Source of the DNA: Massalongia carnosa
Lineage: Eukaryota
DNA length: 64,000 nt
Direction of reading: 5' to 3'
Assembly (NCBI GenBank): GCA_965645245.1
Contig: OZ287082.1
Location: forward strand, 620,001-684,000
The notes under the pieces were generated by a model, which did not search any database, was not told the DNA's origin, and saw nothing but the letters and a program-made list of their open reading frames with translations. Positions 7,753-48,100 of the stretch are shown here, piece by piece (position 1 is the stretch's first letter; each line of letters starts with the position of its first letter). The position numbers and the translations under genes were made by a program.

Positions 7753-8978
7753 ACCTCCTGGACCTTCGATATCTGTGACGTTGATATCGGCGTTGATTGT
7801 GCATTTGATGATCCCTCATATAGGACAAGGGAGCGAACCGCGGTTGTCTTTCGATTCGGGCAGTCACCAATGGTACCCGGATGTTGACGTCGACAATAGA
7901 AGCATAGCTTCCAGTCATCACAGATCTTACGGACTCCTGGATCCGTCAACTTATGGCCTCGAACGGCGGCCATTGCTGAACTCAGATCCATGGGATCGCC
8001 GCCGGCAGCGGCGACAGGGGCAGCAGGTGTGGTGACGGCCGGGGTGATGCGTGTGGTCGTGTTGGAGGTGCTGGTCGTGGCAGGTGCGTTTCCTCGTCTA
8101 GTGGTCGGAGGATTGCTGGCATTGGCAGCAGGGGTGGTGCGAGAATGGCGATGTTTTAACTGCCTCAGGTCCCAGTCGGTGTCGGACCACATCTGCACAT
8201 GATCGTCAAACGTAACGGGCCTGGACCCATCGGTTTTTCGCCACGAGATTGCGGCTGCCTGTGTGGCGTAGTTGACATTTGATCGCATGGCGTCGATTAG
8301 AGAGGCATCTTCCATTCCCGATCGTTCTTTCTTCTGTGTGAAGAGGTTATAGTATTCTTCGAAACTTAGCGTACCCTGTTTGAGGGTGTCACGAAGATAG
8401 GTGCGTGCGTCTTCTTCTTCAAAGCGATTGCTACATGCCTGGCGCAATTTCATTCGCCAATCTTTCAGACTTGTCAGCGCGCACAAGCCATCCTTTCTAT
8501 ACCTGTTCATCAAGTTGTGTGCTTTTTTTCCGATGGTAAGTCGGGATTCGGCATAAGTTATCTTTTCGTTCTCTGTAGGATAGCGGTCATGGTTCACATG
8601 CATCCTCTGTATCAGACTCTGTTCCCATGAATCGAGATTGTCCATGTTGCCGTCGTATTCGGCAATGTCCGGCAGCTTTTCTGACTTGGCCGGTTTGTCT
8701 GTGGGGAGGTTCTTGGACATAGCAGCTGTTACGGCGGCCACGATCGAAGTAAGGAACTCGGGACTGAGAGAGGAAGAAGGGGAAGACGTGGAAGGTGGTG
8801 TAACAATGGTGGAGGCTTGTCGTGCTTGGGCTTCCTGTTCCAATTTTGCTATTTGGTTTTGCAATCTCTCCATTTCTTGAAGGAATGGAAGGGGGTTGGC
8901 CTGCACGTAGGCAAGCTGTGCATCTGTGCTTTCAATGGGCTGCTCGGGCATAGGTTGTCCTTGATCTTGGTTTGACAT
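7740..8978 (-). CDS. gag: Gypsy Gag (412 aa)
   Basis: KSEKLPD, LKQG, GDPMDLS and CFYC..QH....DC knuckle typical of fungal chromovirus Gag; lies between the 5' LTR and pol. Confidence 0.93.
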   Translation of the reverse strand: MSNQDQGQPMPEQPIESTDAQLAYVQANPLPFLQEMERLQNQIAKLEQEAQARQASTIVTPPSTSSPSSSLSPEFLTSIVAAVTAAMSKNLPTDKPAKSEKLPDIAEYDGNMDNLDSWEQSLIQRMHVNHDRYPTENEKITYAESRLTIGKKAHNLMNRYRKDGLCALTSLKDWRMKLRQACSNRFEEEDARTYLRDTLKQGTLSFEEYYNLFTQKKERSGMEDASLIDAMRSNVNYATQAAAISWRKTDGSRPVTFDDHVQMWSDTDWDLRQLKHRHSRTTPAANASNPPTTRRGNAPATTSTSNTTTRITPAVTTPAAPVAAAGGDPMDLSSAMAAVRGHKLTDPGVRKICDDWKLCFYCRRQHPGTIGDCPNRKTTAVRSLVLYEGSSNAQSTPISTSQISKVQEVEKA

Positions 8979-26892: not shown

Positions 26893-29800
26893 ATGGCAAG
26901 CCCGGCGCGTGAAGGAAAACGGGAGCGATTGAAAGAAAATGTTAGGTCCTTGTTTAGTCACAAGGCTGATAAGGCAAAACAGGACTCTACTGGAACTCCT
27001 CCGAAAGAATCTTCCACATCAAAAACAATGAAACCTGATTCTGCCTCTATTCCAACGTCAACTGCCAAGATGAATCCGAAATCTGGATCTGCTCCGAATT
27101 CAACTGAAGAGGCGAAACCGATCAAAGCATCTTCCTCAGCGGGTGCGCAAGATAAGGATGTTAGGAGTAATCTGTGGGACGTTGCGCTGCAGAAACTGTC
27201 GTCGAAGGAGAAAGAGGCAATTCAACAGATCAACCTGGATCCAAAACTAGAGATGGTGGAACAGTTACGCGATGTCATTCAGCAGAAGCGAGATGAATGC
27301 CTCAAGAAACGATGGAAATTCAAATTTCAAGATCAAGAGATAATCCTTCGCGATTTAGCAGAGAAAATCATCGTTGGACTCAACAAATTCAAGGAAATTG
27401 GAGACGTCGCAGTAAATTTTGATCCTGTTCATGCTGCGTTGCCATGGGCGGGAGTCAGGTTTTTGCTGCAGGTAAGATTCGATTTTTCTTTGACGTGAAT
27501 TGAAAAGTCCTAACTCTGGAGAAGTTGGCGGTAGGAGAAAGCGAGTTGATGGCAGCTTTACTTATGGGCGGAGAGAAGGTGACGCAACTCATCAATCGGT
27601 GCGGAATATACGAGCTCCTTTACCTTCGCCCTAAGCCATTCGAACCGTCCACACCGGCTACGGCGAATCTAATAACGGCATTGATAGCCTTGTATAGCGC
27701 TGTGTTAAGATTCAGCGCCCATGCAAAGCAGTCATACAATCGAAGCTTTGTTTCTCGAACTCTGGGAAGTTGGTTGAGCCCGGAAGTTCTTGGGTTTGTC
27801 GAGACTTGTAAAGACTTAGAAGCGCAGGTAGAGACGGAGACAATAAATTTAGATCGCATACAAGATCGGGAAACAAACACGAAGCTTGAGAGCTTGTTAG
27901 AAGATTTGAAAAGTCCAATCTTGCGTGTCGATGCCCGAGTGGGTACTTTGAGCGATGGGTATGAAGTGGACAAGCGAAATAAAATACTTTCTTGGGTATC
28001 CGACATTCCATACGAGGATATCCACTATGTTGCTCGCAAAGGATGGACAAACGGAACAGGAAAGTGGTTGCTGGATCATGAACGATATGTAGAATGGCGT
28101 GCGTCTAGCGCATCGACAATATTATGGCTGCACGGAATGCGTAAGTCTATATGCCATATCTAGCATCCTTACTGACTATATCCGTTAGCTGGCGCTGGCA
28201 AAACTAAACTTGTGTCGACAGTCGTCGATGACTTGATTACTACTTTTACTCAGCAATCGAATGACGAGGCGCTGGCCTACTTTTATTGCGATCGCAATCA
28301 GCCTAACCGTCAAGACCCAGCCCTAATAATGAGCAGCTTTGTCCGACAACTGTCAGGGGTCGAAAGAATTAACACGATTCAGCGTCCAATCGTTCAAAAG
28401 TATGAAATAGCACAAAGAAATGGCTTTGCCTCAGGAGGGCTCAAGATTGAGGAAAGTTTCGATCTTCTTCTTCAGCTGACGGAGATTTATCCACAAATCA
28501 CGTTAGTTTTGGACGCTTTGGATGAGTGCAACAAGGAAACGAGAGCCTCTTTCATGAAAATGTTAGACACCTTGGTCAGCGGCAAGTCTTCTAACTTGGT
28601 AAAGGTTTTCATCTCGAGCCGGCCAGATCTAGATATCAAACACCGATTTAATGATGGACCAAACATGGGGATAAAGGCAACGGATAATGAGAAAGACATA
28701 GCAAAGTTTATCGACGATAAGATCACCGATAAATCAGAGTGGTACTGCAAGATAAGTTCCGAACTTAGAGAGCTCATCTCCGAGACGTTGGTGAGCAAAA
28801 GTGACGGAATGTAAGTTATTATAACTGTTAGCCACTAGTATGATTTTCTAAGATTAGAATAGGTTTCAGTGGGCATCTCTGCAGATTATTCAACTACATA
28901 AACTCCCGCCCCGTAAACGCGATATTGAAGAGCGACTAGGCAAACTTCCTAACGACCTTGATGCGGCATATGACGAAATATATCGAAGAATTCAGACCCA
29001 AGGTGGAAGCGCGCCCGATATTGCCAACCGTGCATTTCAATGGATCATGTGTTCCGGGAAACCCTTATCGCCAGCAGCACTAGTCGCTGGGGTTTGCCAA
29101 GATCCCAACACGGACGTCGTTGACGCTGTGGATATCGATATCGATTTCGTTCTCGACGCTTGTCAGAACTTAATTGTTGTGGATTCCCAGCTAAATATCT
29201 GTCGATTTTCCCACTTATCCGTTCAGGAGTATTTGGAAAAACACTGGAGTTCTCATGATGCGAATGCTCTCATAGCGAAAGTATGTCTGTCTTTATTGAA
29301 TGACCCGATTCAACAAAAACGGGATACAGAGTCGCAAGACGGAAACAAAGAATTCAACGACATTGTACGATATGCAAGATTTTTTTGGGCAAACCACGTA
29401 CAAGACCACGGGGAAGAAAGTATTGATTCTTGTTTATCGACAATTTTAAAGCAATTCCTTGGATCCCTTAACGAAAGCGGCCCTGCATATAAGAGTTGGC
29501 ATGAAACGATAGGTAGAAAATACAATTTATATGATCTGCTCAGTCCATCTTCATCGACTTTGCTGGCAGCATCGGCGTTTGGGTTCAATAAAATCTTATC
29601 CGATTGGTGGGAAACGGCGGTTTTCGATGTAGAGACACGTAATAAAGAAAATATATCATTGCTACAGATTGCAGCTGATAATGGTCATCTTTCTATTATC
29701 ATGATTCTGTTGAACAAAGGAGCGGACGTTAACGCGCAAGGCGGAGGGTATGGCAATGCGCTGCAGGCGGCATCATTTAATGGTCATGAAAAGATAGTGC

Positions 29801-32205
29801 AATTTTTGTTGAACAAGGGGGCGGACGTTAACGCGCAAGGCGGAGAATTTGGCAATGCGCTGCAGGCGGCATCATGGAATGATCACGAGGAGGTGGTGCA
29901 ATTATTGTTGAATAAGGGGGCGGACGTTAACGCGCAAGGCGGAGAATTTGGCAATGCGCTGCAGGCGGCATCATGGAATGATCACGAGAAGGTGGTGCAA
30001 TTATTGTTGAATAAGAGGGCGGACGTTAACGCGCAAGGCGGAGAATATGGCAATGCGCTGCAGGCGGCATCATGGAATGGTAACGAGGAGGTGATGCAAT
30101 TGTTGTTGAATAAGGGGGCGGACGTTAACGCGCAAGGCGGAGAATTTGGCAATGCGCTGCAGGCGGCATCATGGAATGATCACGAGGAGGTGGTGCAATT
30201 ATTGTTGAATAAGGGGGCGAACGTTAACGCGCAAGGCGAGGTATGACAATGCGCTGCAGGCGGCATCATTGAAAGGTCACGAGGAGGTGATGCAATTGTT
30301 GTTGAATAACGAAGCGGACATTCACACGCAAGGCGGAAAGTATGGCAATGCGCTGCAGGCGGCATCATTCGGAGGTCACGAGAAGGTGATACAATTGTTG
30401 TTGAATAAGGGAGTCGACGTTAACGCGCAAGGCGGAAAGTATGACAATGCGCTGCAGGCGGCATCATTGAAAGGTCACGAGGAGATGGTGCAATTGTTGT
30501 TGAATAACGATGCGGACGTTCACACGCAAGGCGGAAAGTATGGCAATGCGCTGCAGGCGGCATCATTCGGAGGTCACGAGAAGGTGGTGCAATTGTTGTT
30601 GAATAAGGGGGCGGACGTTAACGCGCAAGGCGGAGAGTATGACAATGCGCTGCAGGCGGCATCATTGAAAGGTCACGAGGAGATGGTGCAATTGTTGTTG
30701 AATAACGATGCGGACGTTCACACGCAAGGCGGAAAGTATGGCAATGCGCTGCAGGCGGCATCATTGAAAGGTCACAAGAAAGTGATGCAATTGTTGTTGA
30801 ATAAGGGGCCGGACGTTAACGCGCAAGGCGGAGAATATGGCAATACGCTGCAGGCGGCATCATCGAATGGTCGCGAGAAAGTGGTGCAATTGTTGATAAA
30901 TAACGGGGCGAAAGTTAACGACAGCGCGCTGCAGGAAGCATCATCGAGTGGTCACGAGGGGGTGGTGCAGCTGTTGATAAATAACGGGCGAAAGTTAACG
31001 ACAGCGCGCTGCAGGTAGCATCATCGGAAGGTCACGAGAAGGTGGTGCAGCTGTTGATAAACAACGGGGCGGAAGTTAACGACAGCGCGCTGCAGAAGGC
31101 ATGCATAAGTGGTCACAAGAAAGTGGTGCAGCTGTTGATAAATAACGGGGCGGAAGTTAACGACAGCGCGCTGCAGAAGGCATGCATAAGTGGTCACAAG
31201 AAGATGGTGCAGCTGTTGATAAATAACGGGGCGGAAGTTAACGACAGCGCGCTGCAAGCAGCATCATCGGAGGGTCACGAGAAGGTGGTGCAGCTGTTGA
31301 TAAATAACGGGACGAAAGTTAACGACAGCGCGCTGCAAGCAGCATCATCGGAGGGTCACGAGAAGGTGGTGCAGCTGTTGATAAATAACGGGACGAAAGT
31401 TAACGACAGCGCGCTGCAAGCAGCATCATCGGAGGGTCACGAGAAGGTGGTGCAGCTGTTGATAAATAACGGGACGAAAGTTAACGACAGCGCGCTGCAA
31501 GCAGCATCATCGGAGGGTCACGAGAAGGTGGTGCAGCTGTTGATAAATAACGGGGCGGAAGTTAACGACAGCGCGCTGCAGGTAGCATCATCGGAAGGTC
31601 ACGAGAAGGTGGTGCAGCTGTTGATAAATAACGGGGCGGAAGTTAACGACAGCGCGCTGCAGAAGGCATGCATAAGTGGTCACAAGAAAGTGGTGCAGCT
31701 GTTGATAAATAACGGGGCGGAAGTTAACGACAGCGCGCTGCAGAAGGCATGCATAAGTGGTCACAAGAAGATGGTGCAGCTGTTGATAAATAACGGGGCG
31801 GAAGTTAACGACAGCGCGCTGCAAGCGGCATCATCGGAGGGTCACGAGAAGGTGGTGCAGCTGTTGATAAATAACGGGGCGGAAGTTAACGACAGCGCGC
31901 TGCAAGCGGCATCATCGGAGGGTCACGAGAAGGTGGTGCAGCTGTTGATAAATAACGGGGCGGAAGTTAACGACAGCGCGCTGCAAGCAGCATCATCGGA
32001 AGGTCACGAGAAGGTGGTGCAGCTGTTATTGGATAACGGGGCGGAAGTTAACGACAACGTGCTGCAGAAAGCAAGGAAAGGCCAGGAGAAGGTGATGCTG
32101 CAGTGGTTGGATAGGAAAGGCATTAGCGACGAGTTGCTGCAGGAATATAGGGAAGATCAGGGGAATGTCATACGACTGCTGGAGGCAGCCATGAAACCTT
32201 CCTGA
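26893..32205 (+). CDS. NACHT-ankyrin fungal NLR (N-terminal helical domain, NACHT, long ankyrin array); two frameshifts in the repeats
   Basis: [21 protein letters not shown]-loop WLHGM|PGAGKTKL across intron 28141-28188; Walker [15 protein letters not shown]. Introns 27472-27524, 28141-28188 and 28811-28862 join the exons in frame; indels at ~30238 and ~30987. Confidence 0.92.
29705..30890 (+). repeat. Tandem 99-bp (33-aa) ankyrin repeats, ~12 units
   Basis: [29 protein letters not shown] recurrences. Confidence 0.92.
30890..32070 (+). repeat. Tandem 81-bp (27-aa) shortened ankyrin repeats, ~14 units
   Basis: [27 protein letters not shown] recurrences; higher-order 567-bp duplication. Confidence 0.92.
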
Positions 32206-34117
32206 TATCAAGTCCTCCCTCAGCCCTGATTTCTTTTGGCGTTAATTCATATGAAGCTGCTTGTTAGACGAGTCTTCTATTTTCTTCTTGAGAGAAGAAT
32301 GCGCGAAGCGAGATACTATCTGAAGAAAGAGAGGAGCTTGTGATTGAGAGATATCAATGTAGCAAGCTAGCACTGCTTTTTTATCATGCTGTCTGCTTAT
32401 TGAAGATTGTTAGCTTTTTCGTATTGAAATATTCGAAAGACCTTTGAGTAAAAGTAAAATACTAGTTTTGATGACTTTCTATAATCTAGTTCAAGAGATC
32501 AATAAGCTCGTCGTTGCGGGATATAAGATATTTCATCAAGAATAGTGAGTTCAAGGAATTGACATTAAAGCTGTAAGTACTGAGATTAATATAAGCGGAG
32601 AGATGAATCGGAAAGTCAGTTACAAGAAAAATCCTGAAGTAGCGGATAGTTATCGAGAACTTCAGTTATCAATACGAGTTCTTCAGTACTAGGAAGATAT
32701 TGACACATATATCTCAGATAGTTAATGATCTTAGAAGGAAAGAGGAAAAGAAAGCAGATTAGTAAAAGCACAGAAAACATATGAATCAAGCGGAGAAAAG
32801 AGCTTTGCGATAAAGGGTCTTTTCCATTAAAGAAGTAAATGTGCATTCATTGAACAAACAACTAGTTAGTTAGGCAAAGAACGATATTAACCTCGTTTAA
32901 CAAAAGCCGTGTCCAATCGCGACAAGACTGATATGCGAAATCAGGGACATTTATACATATCTATCGCCCATTGACCTTCTTTCCGATCACCTTCCGGACT
33001 CTGTTAACAAAACCCTTTTGCTGACAAGTAATTAAACCGAACCATGCGCTCATCTCCCGCTGTCAACGCGGACTTGACATTTTGCGAGTTTTTCGGAGCA
33101 ACGTGCGTTGATCATCGCTCGTTGCGAGTTCGGGAATGAAAGTGAGAAAACTCCTTTTTTCGAGTAAAATTACCACTAGCAAAACATCACCACTTTTTTG
33201 TATGTGGTGGTTAGAAAATTACACGATTAGTCCCGGGCGATATGAACTCCGATGCGTATTTTATCTATTGAGCTCGAGTCTCGGGCGCAATAACTTCACT
33301 GCTCGTTTATATAGAAAACATCGTCTTTGATCCTTTAACAAAAATGAATCCGTCATAGTCTTTGGTTTTTATCTTATCGCTGCGGTCCTGTGTCTTCCTT
33401 AACTTCAATAGCTGGTTTGCAAATATTTAACACAAACCAGCATTTGACTCATAATTGCAGAACAGCGACGACAGAGACCTGCGCAACGGGATGAGCGCAT
33501 TCGTTATGATATGATTCATTGAATGGGTCACTGAACTAATACAAAATAATCATCGTTTTTGACAGTCGCTGCACCATCACACTTATCAACAACAGCTCGG
33601 GGTTGATGAAAGAGCGAGTTCTGAATTCTCATGGGCCCATGCCTGTGCCTCGGATGAGAGTTGCGAAAATCTCAAATGAGCGATCGAGGATGCATTCGAG
33701 TCATCGGAATGTGTATCAATCGTCCATCAGTTCATACGCTCGGTGTTGCTGGCAGATCTATTTCCTCGCCACTATGTACAAAAGATACTTGTTCAGAAGA
33801 AACGAATGGAGGCAGAGCGATTTTACAACGAGGTTTCTTTGATATAAGAGTGGCTCGGGCTTGAGGGACGGGGGTCAAATACCATAACCTGCTTGTTTTA
33901 AGAGATGGGTGCGGACTAGGTCATGACTGTTTGAAAAGTCACGGAGGGGCGGAGGACTGATATGATAAATACATCCGGATGGGATAGATACACAATAACA
34001 TGAAAGCCCGTTTGTAACGATGTGTCTGAATAGCGGACGTCAAAGGTATGACGTAAGAAGTCTTCGCCTCAATGTTTACGCTCTAGTTACTGTGTACGGA
34101 GTAACTTACCAAGGAAA

Positions 34118-34212
34118 TTGCCTCAGTACCTCAGACGTGCGTGGCTCAATGAGCCGGCTAAGCCCCTCCGGGTTAGCCTATTTTCGCTAAGCCCCTTCGG
34201 GTTAGCGTCGCT
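34118..34212 (+). repeat. Left terminal inverted repeat
   Basis: ttgcctcagtacctcagacgtgc...gggttagcgtcgct is the reverse complement of 40050-40144. Confidence 0.95.
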
Positions 34213-34616
34213 GCTGACTCACATCAGTGCGATAGCACGTCTGAGCGCAAAACTCAAAATTACGGCCAGATCCGCGTAATAAAAATTTTAGCAGTGCAAC
34301 CATTCCTTTTATGGATTTAATACAATGATTAGGGTCGTATTAGTTTACCAGAGACTGTATTTTATACCAAAAACGCACCTCTCAAGATGGATGACTCGAT
34401 AATCATGTGTTATAACTACTGTCAGGCTAAGAAAAGCGATGTGAAAGTCGATTAAGTGATAAATTGTTCGCTTTCGCTCAATTTTGAGGTTGATGAACTG
34501 ATTATTTTCATGTGGCGCGATTACATTGAGTTACAAAGATCATGATGATATGAATAACGACGGCCAATCAATGGTATTGTATGATTTATCTAGATTGAAG
34601 CTATCTGACGAAAGCC

Positions 34617-37295
34617 ATGGCTCTTGTCGGGGGCCCCTCCTCGCCACTTACCGACCTACGGACAAGTCCCTTGACTCCCGCCGGTGCGCTCAAGCGGCCC
34701 CACCCATCGCCGTCAGGCAGTAATGATAGCTCACCCTCTTCCTCCTCCCCTCCTGCCTTACCTGAAAAAAATGGAGGCGCGAAACGCCACCGCCGGCGCA
34801 TATCAGATTACGACAAGCTGGTTGAGGTGCTTAAATTTCTGAGCTCTCTAAATTGGTCGGTAAAAGATTTTTTATCAACACTTTGTAAGAATCGAGCCCG
34901 TCATAGTATGCGAAAGGCGCAAGGCCAGCTCTTCGATTTTGTCTATGTCGATATTGTGCGGCAAGAAGACTTTTCAAGCCTCATTGGGCCTGGTAGAATA
35001 TCCACTATCCTTCGCGAGAGAGGATGGGTTTGGGCCGCGGATGTGCTTCGTGAAGAAATCAAAGCTTTGGCAGATCACGCAGCCTTTGGCCCTTTCCAGC
35101 CGCCCTCTGCGACAGTCGAGTTTGGGACCTTGGAGGCTATTAAACTTGCTGCATCTGCCGCCAAGCAGTTGGCGCCACGATGGCTTGAGCTAATTGATAG
35201 TGTTTGTCGCGAGGCTCGCCCGCAGGAACCTCTCGATGTGACGTTGGATTCTCCCAGCGGCCGGCACACCGTTATATTGGCAATGCTTTGTCACAAATTG
35301 CGACCAAATAAGGCGACCAATATTCAGTCCGTCTTAGGCCTTTATATTTATCAAGGTGGTGCGAGGCGGCGAGTTCTAGATACACTCTGTCATTTTGACC
35401 TGACGATGTCATATACTACCCTGCAGCGGCGCATGTTGTCCTTGATTAAGGAGGCCGAACGAAAGGTTCAGATGCTAGGACAAGGCTCAAACATGATCTT
35501 GACATACGATAACTTTGACTTCGCAGAAGGTAAACGAGGAGAGCGCACGGGGGATAATAGAGACGTCAGATCAATCACTACCGCTCTAATTTTCCAGGGG
35601 CAAGGATTCGATGCCGGCGCTTTGAGGCAGGATATGTGGCGCCCCGCCACGCATCTTTTATCAGCTGAAAGAATTGCGCGAAAGCTGGAGACTGGTGATC
35701 TCGAGATGCAGGTGAGTTCAATACAGGACGAGGTGTATATACCGCGCTCAATCGCTAATGCACCGCGTACCTAGATTCGTCTTCATCATCTAGAGTCAGC
35801 GATTCGAGCGCTTTATGGCCCAGAGATCGGCGACGTTCAACTTCCTTGGTCGACTGCAATGCCCGTGCTGAATAAGATGAAAAAATACAAGACCAATTAC
35901 ATTCCTATCAAACCAGTCATGAAGGATGAGAGCACAACATCTAATAATATTCAAATATTGGAGGATATATTTGTGCGACAGTTCAAGTTCAAGGAGGATG
36001 ACTCGACGTTTGCGAGCGTCATTCGGCTTATCTATGGTGACCTCAAGACATGGTCGAGAATGCAATCTGTCAAGGAATTACGTCGTGGGATATCGGAGCA
36101 ATCTTTCGATCGGTTCGACTGGATTTTACCGGGATTAGGGTTATGGCATCTTCGCTTTAACATGCTGCAGCTTATTCATAAAATACATTGGGGAGAGGCC
36201 CAGCCGGTTGATCCTTCGACTCTTCAATATGCCGCCGATCGGTGGGGCCGCGCTCGTGTCGTGCAGCCGAACGATTTCCAGGCCTTAGAGGATCTGATCA
36301 TTCAGAGCTATCAAGCTAGAATCGTTGGGACGTGGATTAGGTTTTTACGAAAGGATGGATATGCTCCGCAGCGAATCGAAGCAACTATTTCGTGGCTCAC
36401 AGCGCAGACTTGCGGGCAGGATGGCACCTGGATGAATATGTTGGGCAGGATATCTCGCAAACTTCACGCGGAATTACCCTCAACGTCAATAGATATGCTT
36501 CCTCCAACGCTTGATCAACAATTTCAGAATCATCAGAACTTCTGTGATCACGTTGAATCGTATCTAACACTTCGATACGCAATCAAATATGCGGATATTG
36601 GACTACTTCGTCACGCATTGCGCCACGCAACGGTGATCTTTCAGGCAAGCGTAGCTGGCACCCCGAAATATGCGCAAGCTCTTCTATACACCCTTCATGC
36701 GATTGATTCTTCCGCAGCGACGATAAGGCTACAGGAAAGTATTTTAATGAATAGTCTTGTCAATTTACGCGGTGACGAAGAGTCGAGTTTTGAGACTGAT
36801 CGGCTTTTAGAGATACTAAACAATAACCTCAAGACGTTCCAGCACGAGCGATCTTATTTTTCAAAGTATAGTGACACCTTGCTCGAGAACTGGGCACTCA
36901 ACGGTCCATATCTTATGAAGCTCAAAGAAATCGTTGAGTTTTACTTTGGAAGAGTCAACTCTTCAAGGCATCCAGCAAAATCGGCCGCAGAGGATGTGTG
37001 GGGCATGGCTACGGCACTAGCGCATAAATCACTCTGTAAAAGAAGCTATGATCGATTTTCAACTAATCCAACAGCTAATCTTTATGTTGAGGGATTGAAG
37101 AAACTTGGAGAAAATGTATTAAAATACAATCAGCAGTATCTTTCCGAAGAAATTTCAAAAGAAATTTCAACAGACGACCTTGAGGGTAAGTATGAAGCCG
37201 AGCCCGATTTTGTCAATGAAACAAAGCAGGTCCCCGACAGCCCTGTCATTTCAATGGCCCGTCTCGAGATATCCGGCGGTATGTTTTTTGATTAA
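34617..37295 (+). CDS. Putative transposase, DUF6589/Academ-like (~871 aa, one intron at 35712-35774)
   Basis: A GTGAGT...CTAAT...TAG intron joins ORFs 34617.. and 35859.. in frame; acidic motifs YDNFDF, IYGDLKT, PGLGLWHLRFN and ETDRLLEILNN; lies inside the TIRs. Confidence 0.8.
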
Positions 37296-37354
37296 ATCAT
37301 CGATACCACGAGATAGCCTAGTCATGTAAATCCGCGCCGCGCGGCTTTACAGAG

Positions 37355-39530
37355 TCAGAGGTAGCGGACGGGGCACTTTCTTTCTTGTCTAGATCGTGTC
37401 GGAGGAAGGGCCATGGGTACATTCAGCGACAACGCTTCCATAGGATCTCGAGGCGCTTTTTTGGTCTTTGATGCCTTCATCGATGATTTAAGAGCATCAA
37501 CATTGTCAACAACGAGCGCCGCATCGGAGATATTGTGATTAGGCGCAGGATTCTCGCCCGATGGCTCCGTGCTCTCGCTTTCCTTCGAGACTTTCTTCTT
37601 GACCGCATTTCGCTTTTTAAAAACCTTTCTCGACATATATCCTTGTTTGATCATCCAGTTTTTCCTCCGTTCCTCAAATTCAATACTGGCGGAGTTGCAT
37701 GTTAGGCTGGGTAATCGTTTTCTCTTTATGTCGTTGTGTCGTTTCCATTCCTCGAACATGTCTCCCTCGTCTAATCTCATTGCTTGACCCCGCTTTAAAA
37801 TTTCTAAAAGCTCGGCGCCGTAGGGCCTAATACCAGTCCATGTGTTACCAATCCATCGCCGCATGGTGGGCTCGTCCACAATCTGATCCGCCCAAGTGGT
37901 CAAAGAATTCAGTACCTCATCGGGCATTATCAATGATGGGAAGTATCGCATATGTGAATTTGGGAACTTTTCCTGCGCCTTGGCCTCCCTCCATTCTCGA
38001 AGTTTAAGGGTGAACCAAGGCCGCCTAGACGAGTCACGCTCGGCCGTTCTATTTAACATCTCATTGGCGGCTGTTGATGTCTGAAAACTTGGATCGCAAA
38101 TTGAACAGCAAGGTTGCGGCTTAACATAGGCCGACGTTGGATACACTTTATCATTGAAGAAATTCAAGCCAATACCTCGAACGCAACCATCTGAAGGCAC
38201 ATTGATTATCTCCCAAAGACCCGGTGGCATATCTCGTCGCCGATCAGCATCCTTTTGATTGATGCGGCGTTTACTGGCCTTGGATTCAATCTCGATTCCC
38301 GCGTCATATCCGTCCTGTTCGTCCATTTTTGATCCGCTTCTTGGACCCATGCACCAAGAAGGATGCAAAAGAGTAAAATGCGCCTGTCCTCGACCGCAAC
38401 GCAAAGCACGACCTAAACGTTGGTATAGCTTCGCCATTGACGAGGGTAGCAGCCATTGCGTAACTCTCATAACGTCTGGATTATCAATACCAAGCCCGTA
38501 TGCATCCGTTGCGATCAGGATTCGAGGAAATTTACATTGATTCGAGGGCATTTCGAAGCGAGCCGCAATCCTTTCTTTGTCTTGGGTGGCCATGTCGGAA
38601 AAGAAAGGCGCGACCCAACTAGCAGCCTCAATTGGATAGGACAATTGATTCATCCATACTTTCATTAGCGCACACGCCTTTTTGATAGATGAAATTGAAT
38701 CCATGAAGATAATCGTTTTCGGAATATCAAAAGGACTCTCAGCCCGTGTTGGTAAAAGATGTTGAAGATCGATCATGCTGTTCATAGGCCGCTGTAGACT
38801 GCTTGTCTGTATGTATATCTCTGGACGATCAAGCGCTGTTTGAATAACAGTACTTTCGTTATCAAAGCCACAGCGATCTTTAACGCTCTCTAGGGTTCTT
38901 GGATCCAGCGTTGCAGACGCACCCAGAAAAGGAATACCATCTGGTAATCGTGTACGAAGCACACCGAGATTGAAGTATTCGGGCCGGAAATCTCGCCATT
39001 CGGATACAAGATGCATCTCATCAAGAGCTAAAAGACATAAATTCAAGAAGAAACTTGGATGCCTCAGAACCTCCTGATTAAACAGCTTTGACGTCGCTAT
39101 CTCTGGGCTAGTAAAAACTATTCATATTAACGAGTAAGTTTTTATATTTATCTCAATCATAATTTGAATACACACCATGCGTATAATTGTTTTCACGAAT
39201 TAACTTTAAATTAGAAGAATTATTACTATCACCGTCCAACACGAAAGGCTTGCATCCCTCGATAACGCTCAATTTCTTGCACTGTTGAGCTTCTAAGGTC
39301 TTGAGAGGCATGATAATTAAAGCGATCTTAAGACAAGAGAACATTAATGGCATAGCTTGAAAGATAATACTCTTTCCAAATCCAGTCTTGGCGATAAATA
39401 TCAGATCCTTTTGATCTTGTGCTAAAGTCATGATAGCGTCAACTTGCTCATTCTTTGGATAAAAGCCGAATTTACTTAAAATCACGGTCGTCACCTGCTC
39501 GCGAGTTATCGACGCTATAGGATCGTCCAT
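37355..39530 (-). CDS. RecQ-like superfamily 2 helicase (~705 aa, one intron at 39118-39175)
   Basis: AKTGFGKS (I), IIMPLK, H|VFTSPE across the intron, LDEMH (II), ASATL (III), ATDAYGLGID (V), QRLGRA (VI), CVR...CCSIC zinc site, HRDC-like LREWRE. Confidence 0.9.
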
Positions 39531-40049
39531 TTCGATGTGTTCGCGAGCGATATTCGACGATTCGCGAGTTGGATTCTTAGCCCGCAAAACGCACATCAAG
39601 CAAGTTCATCACATTCAACGATTTTAGGCTTTCGAAAACAACGCTCGGAGGATCAGATTAATGATCAGAAGCGCCGACAATGAAAAACTGGAGCTAGTGA
39701 CCCGTTGAGTCTGCTGTGGTGGTGTCGAAATTTCGAGTCAAAGTCGAGTTCTCGTCGCGAGATCGATATTGCGACTCAATTTTGCATCGATATGTAATTA
39801 AAATATTGATTAATCGATAGAATGTATATCAAAGCATCATTTCTATTATTACATAATTTATGAAATGTCGTTGCGCGTTGTTGATTCCGCCGTCAACTTG
39901 ATTCTTGATGATTTTTGAGGTTAAGCCAAAAATTTGTATGAGCGCGCACCAAAATAAGCCGGATCTGACAAAAATACAGAGTTTTGCGCTCAGACGTGCC
40001 GCCCGTAGCATGCGTAGTCAGCTAAAGGGCCGCTAACCCGAAGGGAATT

Positions 40050-40144
40050 AGCGACGCTAACCCGAAGGGGCTTAGCGAAAATAGGCTAACCCGGAGGGGC
40101 TTAGCCGGCTCATAGAGCCACGCACGTCTGAGGTACTGAGGCAA
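40050..40144 (-). repeat. Right terminal inverted repeat
   Basis: agcgacgctaaccc...gaggtactgaggcaa followed by the TSD caaggaaa. Confidence 0.95.
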
Positions 40145-40412
40145 CAAGGAAATCCCACCCCCGATGTGATGAGTCAGCGAAATTGCCCTTATTGCAGGCA
40201 TGATCCCTTCAGATTCTCTTCATCTCTCTGGAAAGGCGGTTTCGCTCTTTCGACCCACATGTATTTGTCCACTTCTTTGCGGTCGGTTACGAAGGATTAC
40301 GGAGTACAAGAGCTCATGGACACAATTGACCCAATCGTTGCAGAATAGGTCGAGAATGAACTTGCGCATTTCTCATTCGTCCTTCGCGACTCTTGGCTCT
40401 TGACTTCTGGCA

Positions 40413-41712
40413 ATGTCACTGCCATCAGCGACGGAGTCCCGCATGCTACCTCCGTCAGATTTCGACAGGCAAGGGCGCTCGGATTCATCACGACCTTCCA
40501 ATACCAATAGGAAAAGAAAGCATGCTCCGTCCGATGCTCAAAGTATCGCCGGAAGTACTATCACCACATCGTCTGTTCATCAACTCTCGGCTGCCAGCGG
40601 GTTCTCGGCAGCAACAAAGGAGAAGGTGGTGAAGCTCAACAATGGGGTCATCTGTTGGCACTGTGGGGCCTCTCCGACGGTGGTATGTCACGTCATTGCC
40701 AGAAAGGATTCCAAGGTAACGTATATGATATGGATTCTCACAAACGACCTTGCTGACATATGCGACACTCAGTTCCCTTGGCTTCGGCAACACAACGTAT
40801 ATGATATGGATTCTCACAAACGACCTTGCTGACATATGCGACACTCAGTTCCCTTGGCTTCGGCAACACAACCTCATTCCTTTTGATAGCCTGGGGCATA
40901 TGGACAACGCCATTCCCTTGTGTCATGGTTGCCATGCAAACTTCGACGACTATATTAATCCCGGCTTCGTCTTCGCGCCGACAGATCTTCAGTACTTTAT
41001 TCGATTTGAACGCAAAGATAGGGTGCGCAGGGAGAAGATTGCGCAAGACACAGGCACTATGCCGGGCCGCTCGGTTCCCACCGCCATCATGTATTACAAT
41101 CGTCAAGTCAAAAAGGGTTTGATACAGCCAGAGGATGGTGGCGGCCTTTACCATCGCTATGTATTACGGAATTATTTTCATAGCTTCGGGCCTCCCATCA
41201 ATGTAGGACTGAGCCCTTTCTCAGAAAGCGCCACCTGGCACGGAGCCTCAACTGCCGCCCTGCGTCGCGCGTTTTTGGCGCTCGGCTCCCTATCACAAGG
41301 CATCCCGCACGCCGTTCGAGACAAGCTTCTAAAACTTCACGACTTGTACGCCGACGAGAGCGCGAACCCTGCACCTGCGATGCTCAACCGGACTGCCCTC
41401 GTTCATCACAATGATGCTTCCAGCGATTCATCCTCGGATTCATTAGATGGTACACGGGAAAACCCACACAGCGGTGACGCTGGGAATGTATCCGTTGAGC
41501 CCACGCGAGACACTACCACCAGGGACCTGAACGCTTCAACGGAACGCAACAACGAAGCGGGACAGACGACTACACATCGACAACGATCGCATCCCGCGGG
41601 CGCAGAAACCAAGCGAAGGTGCTTCGGCTCTGACGCAATGGTGGAGAAACCTTCGCATCGCCCACATCGTTCCACCCGCCACATCATCAAGGGGCGCCGT
41701 CCTATGGTCTGA
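40413..41712 (+). CDS. Fungal HNH-type endonuclease domain protein (spliced; the stop at 41710 may be a mutated TGG)
   Basis: CWHCG...VCHVI, NAIPLCHGCHANFD, PTDLQYFI; intron donor at 40716, acceptors at 40772 or 40848; the frame continues V*GPESTS past the TGA. Confidence 0.7.
40718..40872 (+). repeat. Exact 76-bp tandem duplication spanning an intron-exon boundary
   Basis: 40718-40793 repeats at 40794-40869, with AAC microhomology at the joins. Confidence 0.95.
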
Positions 41713-43876
41713 GGTCCTGAATCCACGAGCATGAAAGTCATGGAGTTTTTCCAGGAAGTTGAAGAGCTGAATGATTGATCCTATGGAAAGTGGAAAGGGG
41801 GTTCGATTGCGACTTTGGTAGTGTTCATTTTTACTAAACAGGAGGGGATGCAGGATTAGACTAGATTAGGATTTTACAATATCATTTATCTTGATATTTT
41901 GTACTCTATGCAATATATGACTGATTGACTGTCGAAAATCATTTTCTGTTTTTTACTGTACTGTATTGTAGGCTGACCGACGGGTCCGGGCTAGAACCCG
42001 ACTCGGGAGTCCAACCCGATCACATCGGACATTTTCGGACTAGCTCATTATGACCCGATCGACACAACCCGACACTAAAAGATAAGATAAGAATTATCTT
42101 CGAAAATCATCATTTGCATCTGCATCTGCAGCATCACACTAACTACACTGTATAGATAACTCATCAAATTATAGAATTCATCAGGTGCATTCAAATGATG
42201 CAAAACTCCTTCAAAATAAGTCGCTTTGGCAGAAGATGTAATGATTGAAAGATGGAAGATCAGTCAAATTGCGCCCGCTAGTTAGATTCTGAACACATCA
42301 GAACTTCTGCACCACTTTTCAGTTTTTGCTCCAGTTTTACGCCATTCGAGTCCGCTAAGTGACCTCCATTGTGAGCAAACGATAGTCACCTCATGATGAC
42401 TGTGGGGCTGATGAACGATGGAGCAGAACTGTCTGATTTTCGGTCAGCTTTATTTGCCACCGTGCGCAATATTTCTGACCTTTTTTCGCCTTTTATCCAT
42501 TATAACTTCTGTCAAAGCGGCTCGTTTTGAAAGATTTTTGTATTATTTGAACGCGCCTGATAAAGTCTATAATTCAATGAATTAGTGATAGAGAATCGCG
42601 TTATGATTTCTTGTTAATTACAGACATATTCTGCAGTTTTTTTTTCGATTGCATTGATAGAATCGTTATGTATAATAACAAGATTTTACTGATCACTCGA
42701 CTTTTTTCAACTCCTTCTCGATCGTTAATAACATCGCAATTCTACAGTCAGCAAAGCAATATGGTTATTGTTCTCGAGAAGAAAGATTACATAATTATTC
42801 AATAATAACGCGAGACTTTCAGTTGAGATGAAGTCTTATCAATCAACATACGATAAATTCAATTCTTCAATATCTGACTTTAGACTTTTATGTTTATCCT
42901 CAAATCCTCGAATAGTTTCACCGCTCTTTCCTTCACTTGGTCTTCTTCGACAGAACCTTTAGGCGTCACAGGTACGGCCTGTGTTGTCAATCCTTGACTC
43001 AAAGGTTCTCTCGTTATAGTCTTCTCTTTGCCTGAAGAATCATCCATAGTAACTGTCATCGCGCATGTCTGTTCACTCTCGATAAGAATGTCCGCGTAAG
43101 AAAACACCTCGTGCGAGTTTTTATTCGCGAGGGCTTTTGAGTGTTGGGTTGTCGGCACCTTTATCGACCGGCAGATTACCCGCCTATACGCCTATACGCC
43201 TTTCCATCCCTGTTGGAACTTTCGCCATAGTCCAAGCGAAGCCCACTATTGACATCATTATTCCCCGCTTGTAGTTATTGATGCAGTCCTGATGCCGAAT
43301 GTTCCCGCGCCTCGAATGTCATAACCTGACGAAATTCTCAAGTATTAGAAGATCATCTTACTTCGAATACAACAGACACATCGAAAGGGACAAGGCTTTG
43401 TCTCTGACCTTCCTGAACAAAAGTTCGTAAAGGTATAAACCTTAATATAATACGATTAAAACTTTTGTCATGTCTTTATTTCATTAGACATCGAAGCCGG
43501 ATCTTGAAGTCAAGAAGTCTTATTGGGTCGGGACGTCGGTTTAAGATAGGAGAGCAGTGAGATGTTATTGGCTGTGCGTTGAGTATTACTGTGAGGCTAG
43601 GAAGACTCTAGATTTGTGATGTATCTTGACTGATCTAGATGAGTGACAATTACAACTTCTGCGACGTCGTTACTCAACATGTAGAACACTAGACATTCTT
43701 TATTGGCATTCTTCGTCACACATATTCTTACAGACATGCAAAATCCATGAACTAGTCATATCTCCGTCCCTCGAGACAGCAATAACTTGATGAATCTAAT
43801 CCTGCGTACTCCGACGCCGGATAAATATTATTTACTTGATGAAACCTAAATTACAAGATAATGGCTATTTATCGGC

Positions 43877-44881
43877 ATGCCTCTTTTCAGTCATGCTTAC
43901 TACACGCTATTCGGCACATATGCAAAGAGCCCTCTGTCACTGTCTTCCATGCATAGAAGTGTCTCTATATACTCTAATATCGCAAAGTCGATGTGGAGGT
44001 GGACACAGAGAGCATCTCATCAGTCGGGATTTGATGAGACTCGTAGTGAGAATCTTGGCGTCTCACCTCCCTTTTCCGGAAGCTCACATATTTTAGGCTG
44101 GCAAGGAAATAGTGATTTTTTTCGTTTCACGCGAGGTCGCTTTGTTAGCAATGAAGAGTTCGAGATGTCACAAAGATGCGTACATTTCAATATGGACAAG
44201 CTGGCTCAGATTGCCGCTTCGACCATTGGCTCAAGATGTTGCGTTGCCATCGGGGGGTGCCCTGACGGGCAATACGCTAAAGCTTTTCTCATGACAATGG
44301 AAGACGGCAAGCAGGTGGTTGTCAAAGTGCCCAATCCAAACGCTGGCCCAGGTCAACTTGTAACCGCAAGCGAAGTAGCAACTATGGAATTTGAGATTCT
44401 GATGACTCTATTTGGACTAAAGGTGCTGATATTCTACAGGCCCGTGACGTCCTCGAGACTCCAGTCCCCAAGGTTTACGCCTGGAGTTCGGAAGCCCAGG
44501 GCAACGCTGTGGGGGCCGAGTACATCATAATGCAAAAGGCACCCGGCGTTCAACTTGAACACGTTTGGACCGAGATGAAATTGGATGACCGCTTGGAGGT
44601 CGTCAAACTAGTTCTCCGCTTCCAAAAATGGACGTCAACTTTGTTCAAGCAATTTGGGAGTCTCTATTTTGCCCACGATGTAAGAAAGCAGGACTCGGAT
44701 GATCCACTCTACTTGGATGAAAATGGCACGGCCATATTTAACCAAAGATTTGCTGTGGGCCCCTCCACGGGACGAGAGTACTATGATGCCGGCAGAGCGT
44801 CGATTCACTTTGATAGAGGACCGTGTATGTGAACCTCAAACCAGATGTGGTTTGTTTGGCGGCTAATACTCAGCTTCTAGG
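43877..44881 (+). pseudogene. AIM9/aminoglycoside-phosphotransferase-like kinase, N-terminal half, cut at the Copia LTR
   Basis: FFRFTRGRF, VVVKVPNPNAGP..VTASEVATMEF, VGAEYIIMQKAPGVQL, FGSLYF, RFAVGPST, DRGP; the 3' half was not found in the window. Confidence 0.75.
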
Positions 44882-45128: not shown

Positions 45129-48100
45129 CTACCTCATGCCCATCATGGCCCTAAAGGCCTTGAACCTTGCTGGTGGTAGCGGCTTTGTCATCCCATCTGC
45201 TATCATTTCATTCGTTGAAATGTATGTGATGATTATCTTTCGGTCTAGTACAACTTCCCTTATCCAATGATGTCGTACGTCAATATGCTTTGTTCGTTTA
45301 TGGAACTCCGGATTGGCAGTGAGGTCAATTGCCCCTTTGTTATCTGCTCGGAGGTCGGCTGGTTGATTAGGTGATCGATGACCGAGGGCCTCGAGGAAGC
45401 GAGTGCACCACAAGGCCTCCTTACCTGCCTCGGTGATGGCCATGTATTCGGCCTCACAAGATGACAGGGCTACGGTCGGTTGTTGTTTTGATTGGTGTGA
45501 AATTGGACCGCCCGAAAGCATCCAAACGTACCCACCGGTTGATTTTCTTCCATCTACGGTCCCCGCCCAATCAGAGTCAGTATATCCGATTAGTTCATTC
45601 GGAGAGTCAGCCGAAAATGTCAGTCCTATGGTCAGTGTCCCTGCTAAATAGCGGAAGATTTGTTTGACTAGCTGTATGTGGGTGGGTCCGGGGTTGCTGC
45701 AATAGCGGCTGAGGACTCCCACAGAATAAGATATGTCGGGTCGGGTATGGACTGCTGGCCACATCAGTGATCCAATTGCTGACTGGTACCAGGAAATGGT
45801 GGCTTTGTCCGCCACCTGTTTTGAGGGGAGAAGGGAGCTCGCCACCCCCGGATCCATTGGTATGGAGGATTGCTTGCATTGAACCGATCAGATAGTTGTT
45901 TTTGTATGAACTCGAGGCGGGGTATGTCTGCCCTAAAGAGTAGTAGGTCGTCCACATATATCGCTATGTATTGCTTTTTGTCTTCGAAACAAACACTCCA
46001 TGATCTAGTTTCAATCGGTGAAATCCTAGCTTCTTTAGGAAATCGACTAAGGTCTGGTACCACACTTGTGGCGATTGTTTCAGTCCATAAAGTGCTTTGA
46101 TTAGCTTACAGACTAAATGGGGGGTGGTAATGAATAGATGAGGTTGTTCAACATAGATCAATTCGTCGAGGTAGCCATAAAGGAAGGCAGTCACCACATC
46201 CATGTGACGTACGATAAAACCTCGTTTGACCCCAACACCCATCATTGCTTTGTATGACATGGGTTTGACCACTGCAGCGAAGGTGTCGATGTAGTCTAGA
46301 CCTTCTTCCTGCTTATAGCCATGAACCACCCATCGTGCTTTGTATTTTAGGATATTTCCATGTCGATCCTTTTTCAGTTTGAACACCCACCGGCCGGTGA
46401 TTATCCGTCGGTCTTTTGGTGCTTCGGTCAACTCCCACGTGCCATTTTCGGTATGAGATTCAATTTCGGTCTTCATGGCCTCCATCCATTTGGGCCAATC
46501 AGGCCTAGCCATAGCCTCTTTGAGCGAGAGGGGTTCGTCTGGCCCTTCATTATCAATGTTGTTTGCAAGCATGGTTAGTGCCTTCATCATATGTATGTGG
46601 GATTTTGCCACGTTTGTGCTAGTGAAGTTAGTTCGTTTCGGTAGCTTACCTGGTCCATAAAAAATTTCATCAGGATATTGTGTTCGTTTGACGGGTGCCC
46701 GCTTGGACCTTCTTAATGGAACATGGTCAGAGGTGGAAGAATTGTGACCTTCCGAGGCCTCGGGGGCCTCGGGGTCGGTGGCCTCGGCCTCGGGGTCATG
46801 GGCCGGACTATCATAAAGTCTATCAGAATTTCCCCCTCCATAATTTTCTTCGACATTTCCCCCTTCTGGCCTTGTTTGTTGTGAATCTCCCACTGAATTT
46901 TGGTGTGAATGTTCCGTGTTTGGAGGAGAATCGGGGGGTGTAGGTAGGTGAGGTTTATTTGACCGAGGGGTGTAATAGTCCTCGGGTTTGTTATTTCCCT
47001 CGTCGTCAAAATCGTCTGGATTTCCGAACTGATCATCGTCTGTTTGTGCCCATTCGTCGTCAACAAGCTCGTTTGATTTGTAAGCTTTCCGGTCAAATAG
47101 GTTCTTTTCATCAATAGTTACGTCTCTAGTAACATGAACTTTGCCTGTGCAGGGGTCATATATCCGGTACTGATTGGTGCCTTCATAGCCCACATGGATG
47201 CCCTGCCAGGACCGTTCGTCTAGCTTCTTTCGCTTTTCCTTGGGAATATGAACCCAAGCACGTGCACCCAACACTCTTAGATGACCGAGGTTAGGCTTTT
47301 TGTTGTTTAGTTTCTCATATGGTGTCACCCCGTCCGTGTTAGAACTTCTGTTCTTCAGATAACACACTGTTTGATGATTTCAGGCCATAGGCCCTTCGGT
47401 AATTTCATTGCTGATAAGATGGACCGAACTGAACTCATCAGAGTATAATTCAGTCGCTCGGCCTTTCCATTTTGCTCGGGTGTGTATGGGGCACTGCATT
47501 TCCATCTGATGTGTTGTTTCTTAAGATAGTCCTGAAAGGCTTCATTGTCATATTCATCTCCCCCATCCGTATGGAGTGCTCCCATCTGCATGCCTGTTTC
47601 CTGAGACGCCCATTCGATATATTCCTTTGCCTTCTCAAAGGCCTGGCTCTTTAGCTTCATTGGATAAACATGATACGTTCCAGTAGCATCATCTTTGAAA
47701 GATATGTAGTATTGTAATCCGTTCCTGGAGGCCGGGTATGGGCCTCCCAAATCACTATGGGACCTCTTCCAGGAATTTTGAAGCTCGAGGCATGAGAGTT
47801 CGTGACGGCTTACGTTGCTGTCTACCCTTCATGCATGGCCCACAAATTTCCTCTGGGATCGGCCCTTTCACCTCAATTCCTTCAGCTATTTTCGGAAGTT
47901 TTAGGATGTTTCGATAACCAAGGTGGCCCATTCTTTGGTGCCAAATTTCAATTGTTGGTTTGATTGCATTCACTACTGGTTTAGTGTTTGCGAAGTTCGT
48001 CATGGCCTCCGAGGTTTAATTCGAAGAACATATTGTTGATTGATAATGTCAGCTAGTCCGTGGATTTTGTTCTCATGAATTAATTGGGTAGGAACATCCG

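Follow-up and report, generated by a model that had tools for sequence, protein, structure and literature searches.

What is the 6-kb, two-gene unit that lies between inverted repeats in this stretch of DNA (positions 620,001 to 684,000 of contig OZ287082.1, assigned to Massalongia carnosa; the whole 64-kb stretch is called the window below), and why would such a unit carry a helicase gene? The unit occupies 34118-40144 (6,027 bp), and very probably it is a cut-and-paste transposon of the AcademH type within the Academ superfamily, autonomous and active until recently, in what is probably a lichen-forming ascomycete. It is filled by two convergent, intact genes of one intron each, encoding an 871-aa protein of the Pfam family DUF6589 and a 705-aa RecQ-like helicase. 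Academ is among the least studied superfamilies of eukaryotic DNA transposons; no active Academ element or biochemical system is described in the literature searched, and to our knowledge nobody knows why one Academ lineage carries a helicase.

The ends of the element, with the target-site duplication (TSD) and the terminal inverted repeats (TIRs), are arranged as follows.

34110-34117, no strand: left TSD copy, 8 bp, CAAGGAAA, 0 mismatches to the right copy
40145-40152, no strand: right TSD copy, 8 bp, 0 mismatches to the left copy
34118-34212, forward strand: left TIR, 95 nt, tip TTGCCTCAGTACCTCAGAC, from the inverted-repeat search
40050-40144, reverse strand: right TIR, 95 nt, from the inverted-repeat search
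34157-34177 and 34186-34206, forward strand: two copies of a 21-bp subterminal repeat, an imperfect palindrome, from the repeat search
40032-40052, 40056-40076 and 40085-40105, reverse strand: three copies of the 21-bp subterminal repeat, from the repeat search
34235-34274 with 39960-39999, forward strand: a second, weaker inverted pair, 40 nt, 83%, from the inverted-repeat search

Alignment of the arms bears out the 6.0-kb unit with 95-bp TIRs that an earlier note on this DNA had described: the arms match at 94 of 95 positions (99% complementary), with the sole mismatch at arm position 31, and the 29-nt tip is found at the two element ends only in the whole 64-kb window (0 expected, from 100 shuffles). 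The same note had offered TSDs of 8, 9 or 10 bp. With ends at TTGCC..GGCAA the duplication has 0 mismatches at 8 bp, 3 at 7 bp and 4 at 9 bp; a 9-bp reading assigns the first T of the left end to the target, and a 10-bp reading carries one mismatch. Because contigs from other copies diverge from the window at 34117/34118 and after 40144, the ends are fixed at TTGCC..GGCAA and the exact 8-bp duplication is favoured over the two longer options. The 21-bp repeat has five matches in the window against 0.02 expected, all of them at most about 115 bp from the ends and four of the five inside the 95-nt arms; its core, GCTAAGCCCC, recurs in the ends of the JAABU family, and the repeats are candidate binding sites for the transposase.

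The mobility of the unit is apparent from its other copies. Part of the stretch is matched by 13 public sequencing runs from 11 studies, four of which were compared: X4, which has the organism label of the best-covering run and comes from a different sample; X5 and X6, which have two further organism labels; and X3. In X4, 2,653 contig pieces fit, 2,084 of them at 99% identity or more, and the summed word depth is 75,000-181,000 in the element versus 796-1,248 in the flanks, a sum that is not a copy number; in X3 the corresponding depths are 39-201 and 1-10. The pieces from X5 and X6 (8 of 8 and 9 of 9 at 99% or more) cover the element and nothing of the flanks, which at the depth of these two runs gives no indication on presence of the locus or on horizontal transfer. 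Contigs part from the window sequence immediately ahead of 34118 in X5 and past 40144 in X4 (five contigs) and X3 (four), and beyond these points they agree little with one another; since the flanks differ and start exactly at both tips, the other copies lie in other places, so that the TIR-bounded, multi-copy mobile element of the first description is confirmed. The chance that two host genes merely happen to lie between inverted repeats is next to nil: homologues do stand in genome records as hypothetical proteins, as host genes would, but no chance match of the tip is expected, the flanks of other copies begin exactly at the tips, and related families share tip, gene pair and TSDs. This candidate explanation is refuted by those flanks together with the TSDs at ten sites.

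The copies also indicate the age of the family. Contigs of the public runs contain internal-deletion joints that resemble those of miniature inverted-repeat transposable elements (MITEs), namely 34229>40003, 34183>40056, 34206>40085 and 34238>40008, and a dozen smaller internal deletions besides. At 90% identity the protein clusters comprise 72 variants of the transposase open reading frame (ORF) and 43 of the helicase ORF, on contigs of 1.3-3.8 Mb, with one protein variant on 10 contigs. The window copy differs from the majority of copies at four bases, both coding differences being synonymous, and no signature of repeat-induced point mutation (RIP), sought as dinucleotide bias, was found in the element. 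By these sequences the family is young, its many copies are dispersed, and the window copy looks functional; the young member proposed earlier agrees with the intact frames, the four differences from the majority and copies at 99% or more.

A recent burst may also have ended, leaving this copy or the whole family as an intact but silent fossil; this is considered unlikely, if well short of negligible. In X4, the second sample with the same organism label and the one other sample that spans both junctions, the window site is occupied too (records 10 and 12), and no empty site, seen as a joint over the whole element, appeared among the 15 joints listed out of 22. The checks suggested at the outset thus yielded other copies and MITE-like forms, and among those joints no empty site. 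Against a silent family stand the intact frames, the synonymous coding differences, the 94/95 TIRs and the lack of a RIP signature in this copy, along with copies at 99% or more with different flanks in several runs and the many internal-deletion derivatives.

The gene on the left is laid out as follows, in the numbering of the read-through protein P0001, which includes 21 intron-coded residues.

34617-35711, forward strand: transposase exon 1, 365 codons; disordered basic N-terminus, helical domain and putative first catalytic strand Y-D298-N-F-D
35712-35774, forward strand: transposase intron, 63 nt, in frame, GTGAGT..CTAAT..TAG
35775-37295 (coding to 37292), forward strand: transposase exon 2, 506 codons and stop; DUF6589, D475, W502..H511, helical insertion domain, D728/E732 and C-terminal helix 822-851

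Both introns of the element were predicted from sequence signals and from collinearity with one annotated homologue; this homologue, P0006, is collinear over the transposase exon junction and is without the 21 intron codons. As first described, the two convergent genes splice into open frames of about 871 and 705 aa, and coordinates, lengths and introns are as claimed. Pfam assigns exon 2 to DUF6589 (E 2.3e-62) and no family to exon 1, and a sequence search of the PDB gave no match to the transposase (best E 0.66). Among 1.84 billion cluster representatives, 1,189 transposase relatives were found at E≤0.001 and 150 at E≤1e-30; a word-indexed protein search gave 11 homologues, and the three with organism names come from Teloschistes exilis, Icmadophila ericetorum and Xanthocarpia lactea, all of them lichen fungi. 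In the ESM Atlas the clusters are of DUF6589 only and come from Arthropoda, Basidiomycota and Mucoromycota, which is a lead on range and not evidence.

An AlphaFold2 model of the transposase, built with a 65-sequence alignment, has a predicted local distance difference test (pLDDT) score of 85.8 and a predicted template modelling (pTM) score of 0.81. Foldseek against the PDB ranks the P-element transposase 6p5a first (E 9.5e-4, probability 1.00), followed by Hermes, RAG1 and Transib; VIA-align, which is independent of Foldseek, gives 6p5a at Z 9.0 (325 aligned residues, root-mean-square deviation (rmsd) 5.8) and Hermes 8edg at Z 8.4 (300 aligned, rmsd 7.3), with Tn5 and retroviral integrases next at Z 7-8. 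The roughly 135 core residues of the integrases align over positions 290 to 773 of the model; this spread and the fold matches therefore point to an RNase H-like core into which a large helical domain is inserted. Strands and helices follow one another as in the RNase H topology: D298 lies on the first strand, D475 follows the fourth, and E732 is part of helix 727-744. Conservation in the alignment of 65 sequences is 50/52 for D298, 51/51 for N299, 43/44 for D475, 43/45 for H511, 40/41 for D728 and 41/42 for E732. The model thereby shows the 871-aa DUF6589 protein as an RNase H-like Asp-Asp-Glu (DDE) transposase with a large helical insertion domain, in which the candidate catalytic residues are D298, D475 and E732 (D298, D454 and E711 in the spliced protein) and the insertion domain lies between the second D and the E. 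The D-N, G-D, H and D..E motifs that had been picked out beforehand are present and conserved (D298-N299, G474-D475, H511, D728..E732); structure prediction, which had been proposed as a check, returned the RNase H-like fold, and Pfam, predicted fold and structural matches alike bear out the DUF6589-like protein as the transposase of the element.

Which superfamily does the enzyme belong to? The hidden Markov model (HMM) of the Academ RNase H domain (supplementary file 1 of PMC5751038; 465 positions, 44 sequences; the alignment of Yuan and Wessler 2011 as extended by Muszewska et al. 2017) was compared with the window protein by eye, from its consensus letters and with no score, over 8 of the about 19 parts of the file (1, 2, 7-10, 18 and 19). 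Five blocks correspond.

HMM 2-6, f-D-N-w-D: window Y-D-N-F-D, residues 297-301
HMM 151-154, y-v-p-i: window Y-I-P-I, residues 428-431
HMM 190-191, g-D, after a hydrophobic strand: window G-D, residues 474-475
HMM 214-223, w-l-v-P-f-l-G-f-f-H: window W-I-L-P-G-L-G-L-W-H, residues 502-511
HMM 450-454, D-e-a-l-E: window D-R-L-L-E, residues 728-732

By this comparison the blocks stand in the same order in the profile and the protein, the W..H and D..E blocks also agree in their internal spacing, and the D and E of the last profile block are both near-invariant. This is good but not formal evidence, at the level of sequence, that DUF6589 is the Academ transposase domain, and the Pfam family is thereby assigned a transposase function. 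The Academ domain is given as having no Pfam counterpart in 2017 in the accessible part of PMC5751038. No DUF6589-Academ link in print was found in the literature searched, which included three supplement files of PMC10799480 in which PF20231, DUF6589 and Academ are all absent; 'Academ' is likewise not named in the lichen transposable-element papers searched, and the sole mention of DUF6589 from a full-text literature search is a speculation on a virulence factor. The earlier note held that fungal AcademH elements are mostly from basidiomycetes, which has to be corrected, since the available text of PMC10799480 already reports AcademH from Ascomycota, citing Kojima 2020.

Related families extend the picture beyond the window. 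A scan of metagenome contigs with a closer 14-sequence alignment (the 65-sequence one being too diverse) yielded 41 loci. The first family comprises 17 loci at 35-43% transposase identity, with a convergent helicase in 16 of the 17 and both helicase exons in 14; its copies are 12.5-12.9 kb long, 82-96% identical (85-91% in long alignments), end in inverted repeats of about 80 nt and are riddled with stops, and no ORF of at least 110 aa is found in any 12.5-12.9 kb copy. From the left end to the transposase gene, these longer relatives hold an additional stretch of about 7.4 kb (L001 1531-8960; L002-L015). In L001-L015 this sequence is decayed by transition-rich changes and has no readable ORF; it includes a 91-bp tandem array at L001 5279-5833 and may hold a third gene. 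The second family comprises 24 loci at 24-30% identity, with elements of about 11.2 kb; in 7 of the 24 a helicase is found on the opposite strand, 6-8 kb downstream, many loci being cut by contig ends. In this 11-kb family two copies (L027 at about 8450-8492 and L032 at about 2130-2170) abut the inverted end of another copy, which suggests nested or end-to-end insertions. Three further contig pairs of the same length in the protein database also link transposase and helicase.

All three families share the tip TT[GA]CCTCAG..CTCAGA: next to the tip of the window element given above, the first family has TTGCCTCAGTCCCTCAGAT and the second TTACCTCAGCAAGCTCAGAC. Conservation at 25% protein identity argues that the tip is the site of recognition and cleavage. 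TSDs could be read at ten independent sites across the three families, L027, L032 and loci lacking one end being set aside, and measure 8 bp at four sites (the window included), 9 bp at six and 10 bp at none; the mismatches in the TSDs of old copies are transitions only. All four 8-bp TSDs (window, L001, L009, L011) extend to 9 bp if the terminal T/A of the element is counted as target, a coincidence with an estimated chance of about 4%. Published TSDs are 9 or 10 bp for AcademH and 3 or 4 bp for AcademX, according to the accessible part of PMC10045372. The 9-10 bp given for AcademH in the earlier note agrees with that figure; the duplication is 8 bp here and 8-9 bp over ten sites, a range that overlaps the published one but lies one base lower.

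Several points weigh against the placement as a recently active AcademH element. The match to the Academ profile was made by eye from consensus letters and has no E-value; the TSD is 8 bp here and 8-9 bp in the wider group, with 0 of 10 sites at the 10 bp that the published range includes; both introns rest on sequence signals and one collinear annotated homologue; the fold scores are middling for a long multi-domain model (Z 9.0; Foldseek TM 0.22/0.37); the summed contig depth may include other organisms; and the window site is occupied in the other sample, where no empty site was seen. The 8-bp TSD and the best fold matches, to the P-element transposase and Hermes, would also suit a hAT- or P-like element. 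An 8-bp TSD is typical of hAT and P elements, and hAT-like enzymes, too, have a conserved W..H block. It is nevertheless improbable that the unit belongs to another DDE superfamily with an insertion domain (hAT, P or Mutator-like), with a captured RecQ paralogue and a superficial likeness to Academ. Pfam reports DUF6589 alone in the window transposase (E≤0.01) and in 17 of 17 long homologues (E≤0.001), with no hAT, MULE, P-element or XPG family; the five ordered blocks, D-N-x-D and D-x-x-x-E among them, fit the Academ consensus by eye; and the helicase linkage, kept among families with 25-40% transposase identity, is old and not a recent capture. That P and hAT enzymes rank first in the fold search is expected, as no solved Academ structure is known that could compete with them.

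The second gene of the AcademH-type element is encoded on the reverse strand.

39530-39176, reverse strand: helicase exon 1; start codon, Walker A (GFGKS) and RecA1 domain
39118-39175, reverse strand: helicase intron, 58 nt, phase 1, GTGTGT..AG; joining gives a 705-codon frame
39117-37355 (coding to 37358), reverse strand: helicase exon 2 and stop; DExH box, RecA2, four-Cys zinc subdomain, family-specific helical C-terminal domain and disordered tail

In related loci tblastn matches start at residue 24 of the ORF of helicase exon 1, two codons before the chosen ATG. The helicase motifs are intact (Walker A G-F-G-K-S, DExH box D-E-M-H and the arginine-finger region), and when its sequence is compared with proteins of solved structure, every one of the best matches (from E 9e-17) is a RecQ, WRN, RECQ5 or RECQ1. 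The model of exon 2 has a pLDDT of 76.1, and its top eight structural matches all belong to the RecQ family: RECQ1 8yrs at Z 19.5 and the RecQ1 D2-Zn-WH structure 6jtz at Z 19.0 over residues 98-345 are joined by BLM, WRN, Deinococcus RecQ, RECQL5 and RECQL4, and the best non-RecQ helicase reaches Z 14.9. C313, C338, C339 and C342 are conserved, in the same alignment also in bona fide RecQs that carry the Pfam zinc-binding family, which supports the zinc site; Pfam finds no RecQ zinc-binding (PF16124), RQC or HRDC family on the helicase itself. Beyond residue 350 a helical domain (354-512) is followed by the disordered tail, and the structural matches end near 345-350. The second gene is therefore supported as a RecQ-type superfamily 2 (SF2) helicase with a zinc subdomain, and the RecQ-like helicase with a Zn site first proposed is upheld by sequence matches, structural matches and conserved cysteines; the HRDC-like tail of that first proposal is conjectural.

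Why the element carries this motor is addressed by complex prediction. The transposase was entered as two chains (60-365 and 387-860) with helicase exon-2 residues 300-515, with no alignments. Three runs scored 0.71, 0.71 and 0.70 versus 0.00 in all three controls, agreed in at least 53% of contacts and gave a partner pLDDT of at least 63. Of 78 solved complexes 51 reach the mark for a pass, as do 2 of 108 mismatched pairs; among eukaryotes the counts are 39 of 65 for solved pairs without a similar earlier complex and 2 of 126 for unrelated pairs. With three chains and cut proteins these counts hold only roughly. The predicted interface brings helicase residues 385-403, 426-430, 486 and 489 together with transposase residues 347-358 and 814-842. 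It falls on the best-conserved, otherwise unexplained parts of both proteins: the F-P-S-L-I-M-P-D motif, W428 (24/24), R486 (21/27) and W489 (21/27) of the helicase, and G826 (35/40), L830 (31/40) and N838 (34/38) of the transposase. No solved transposase-helicase complex of this kind appeared among the PDB sequence and structure matches, which makes it unlikely that the model passed by having memorized a solved structure; we also know of no solved Academ complex.

It is hypothesized from this model that the transposition machine carries the helicase as a docked subunit, in that a domain known only from the transposon helicases clamps the C-terminal helix of the transposase and a RecQ motor is present in every transpososome; this is a serious possibility that stops somewhat short of being probable. 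In the proposed mechanism, the transposase would recognize the tip TTRCCTCAG..CTCAGA and the 21-bp subterminal repeats, and the element would be excised and inserted over target cuts staggered by 8-9 bp. The C-terminal helical domain of the helicase (F-P-S-L-I-M-P-D, W428, R486, W489) would dock on the C-terminal helix of the transposase (G826, L830, V834, N838) and also contact its helix 347-358, and the transposase would in this way bring the RecQ motor to the transposon ends. There the helicase may open or remodel the end DNA so that cleavage and strand transfer can proceed; or it may act, like BLM, in gap repair by synthesis-dependent strand annealing (SDSA), rebuilding the element at the donor site that it has left. 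SDSA in Drosophila requires BLM, according to the available text of PMC1849897. Refilling of the donor would make transposition replicative in effect, which fits the high copy number and the internal-deletion derivatives. If true, the coupling would explain the long TSDs of the helicase lineage (8-10 bp versus 3-4 bp in the nuclease lineage) as well as amplification through helicase-driven re-synthesis of the donor, and eukaryotic cut-and-paste elements would have their first holoenzyme of transposase and helicase.

The docking score expresses the confidence of a model and measures no binding, and the mark is also passed by 7 of 44 blind pairs of neighbouring genes; the two helicase roles are conjectural, and the data fit both alike. 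In an AcademH-type element the helicase might instead act alone, in replication-coupled copying, hijacking of host repair or counter-silencing, with the interface a false pass; this is a credible, if rather doubtful, alternative. It would be consistent with the passing blind pairs, with the departure of this job from the calibration and with a partner pLDDT of only 63-64. The tblastn matches of the distant family moreover end at about helicase residue 260 and about residue 424 of transposase exon 2, and reach neither the C-terminal domain of the helicase nor the C-terminal helix of the transposase. A lone helicase accounts less readily for a score of 0.71 versus 0.00 in the controls, for runs that share at least 53% of contacts, and for an interface that settles, in both proteins, on motifs that are the best conserved and have no other explanation.

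Around the element, the window holds several other features.

27504-32205, forward strand: upstream gene of the NOD-like receptor (NLR) type, with a DUF7708/NPHP3_N-NACHT N-terminal part and a tract of near-identical ankyrin repeats (Pfam Ank E 5.5e-41) about 2.5 kb long, the tract having GC 0.53 and a strong G>C skew
40404-41712, forward strand: ORF that adjoins the element on its right side; contains a Cys/His-rich stretch, and Pfam gives no family at E≤0.001
43862-44832: ORF with no Pfam family
45129-47379, reverse strand: Copia-type pol region split into several frames, with RVT_2 (E 1.5e-42) and a retroviral SH3-like domain
1-2000: GC 0.31 versus about 0.46 elsewhere; may be an AT-rich, RIP-like or repeat region

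The nearby Copia pol region places the element in a transposon-rich stretch. When the flanks were joined in silico, the longest open frame across the junction was 104 codons; the insertion site therefore shows no sign of an interrupted gene.

The class of element is itself not new, AcademH being known, Ascomycota included; within it this family stands out as unusually active. What is new is an intact, high-copy family in a probable lichen fungus, a function for DUF6589, the conserved tip, TSDs of 8-9 bp and a testable interface. Since DUF6589 proteins are, on this reading, transposases, they should be masked in fungal gene sets. As it is intact, differs by four bases from the majority, has clean ends and comes with natural deletion derivatives, the window copy could go straight into excision and insertion assays in which the helicase is present or absent. 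The tip conserved at 25% protein identity and the predicted interface offer concrete targets for mutation, and the element is a clean system in which to probe the purpose of the helicase.

Among known systems the closest is AcademH, a lineage of the Academ superfamily reportedly described by Kojima in 2020 (Mob DNA 11:15). The element shares with it, as far as the accessible descriptions go, the TIRs, a DDE transposase with a separate SF2 helicase, a long TSD when set against AcademX and an occurrence in fungi and animals; with Academ at large its transposase shares the five RNase H profile blocks compared by eye. It differs in its TSDs, 8-9 bp at ten sites versus the published 9-10 bp (PMC10045372, in part), in its probable host, a lichen-forming ascomycete, and in its high number of near-identical copies, where the accessible parts of PMC10799480, and of PMC5751038 (Table 1) for Academ, give low copy numbers in fungi. 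AcademX, the XPG nuclease-bearing Academ lineage, has a transposase of the same superfamily by profile consensus; unlike it, neither the window protein nor any of the 17 long homologues has an XPG domain, and the TSD of AcademX is given as 3-4 bp in the available text of PMC10045372.

The P element (6p5a) and Hermes (8edg, 4d1q) likewise have an RNase H-like core interrupted by a large helical insertion, and TSDs of similar length; unlike them, the window transposase has no detected GTP-binding or hAT dimerisation domain, identity is 9-12% with no shared Pfam family, and neither of the two carries a helicase gene. The helicase resembles RECQ1, BLM, WRN and bacterial RecQ in its core with zinc subdomain (Z 18-19.5), its four cysteines and its DExH box; unlike these, it has a family-specific helical C-terminal domain of about 160 residues and is encoded inside a transposon. 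Kolobok elements make TTAA duplications, and Helitrons are without TIRs and carry a Rep/PIF1-type helicase fusion. KolobokH and Helitron are the other helicase-bearing eukaryotic DNA transposons named in the accessible part of PMC10799480; both carry a helicase as the element does here, but they do not fit its ends, its TSD or its RecQ-type helicase.

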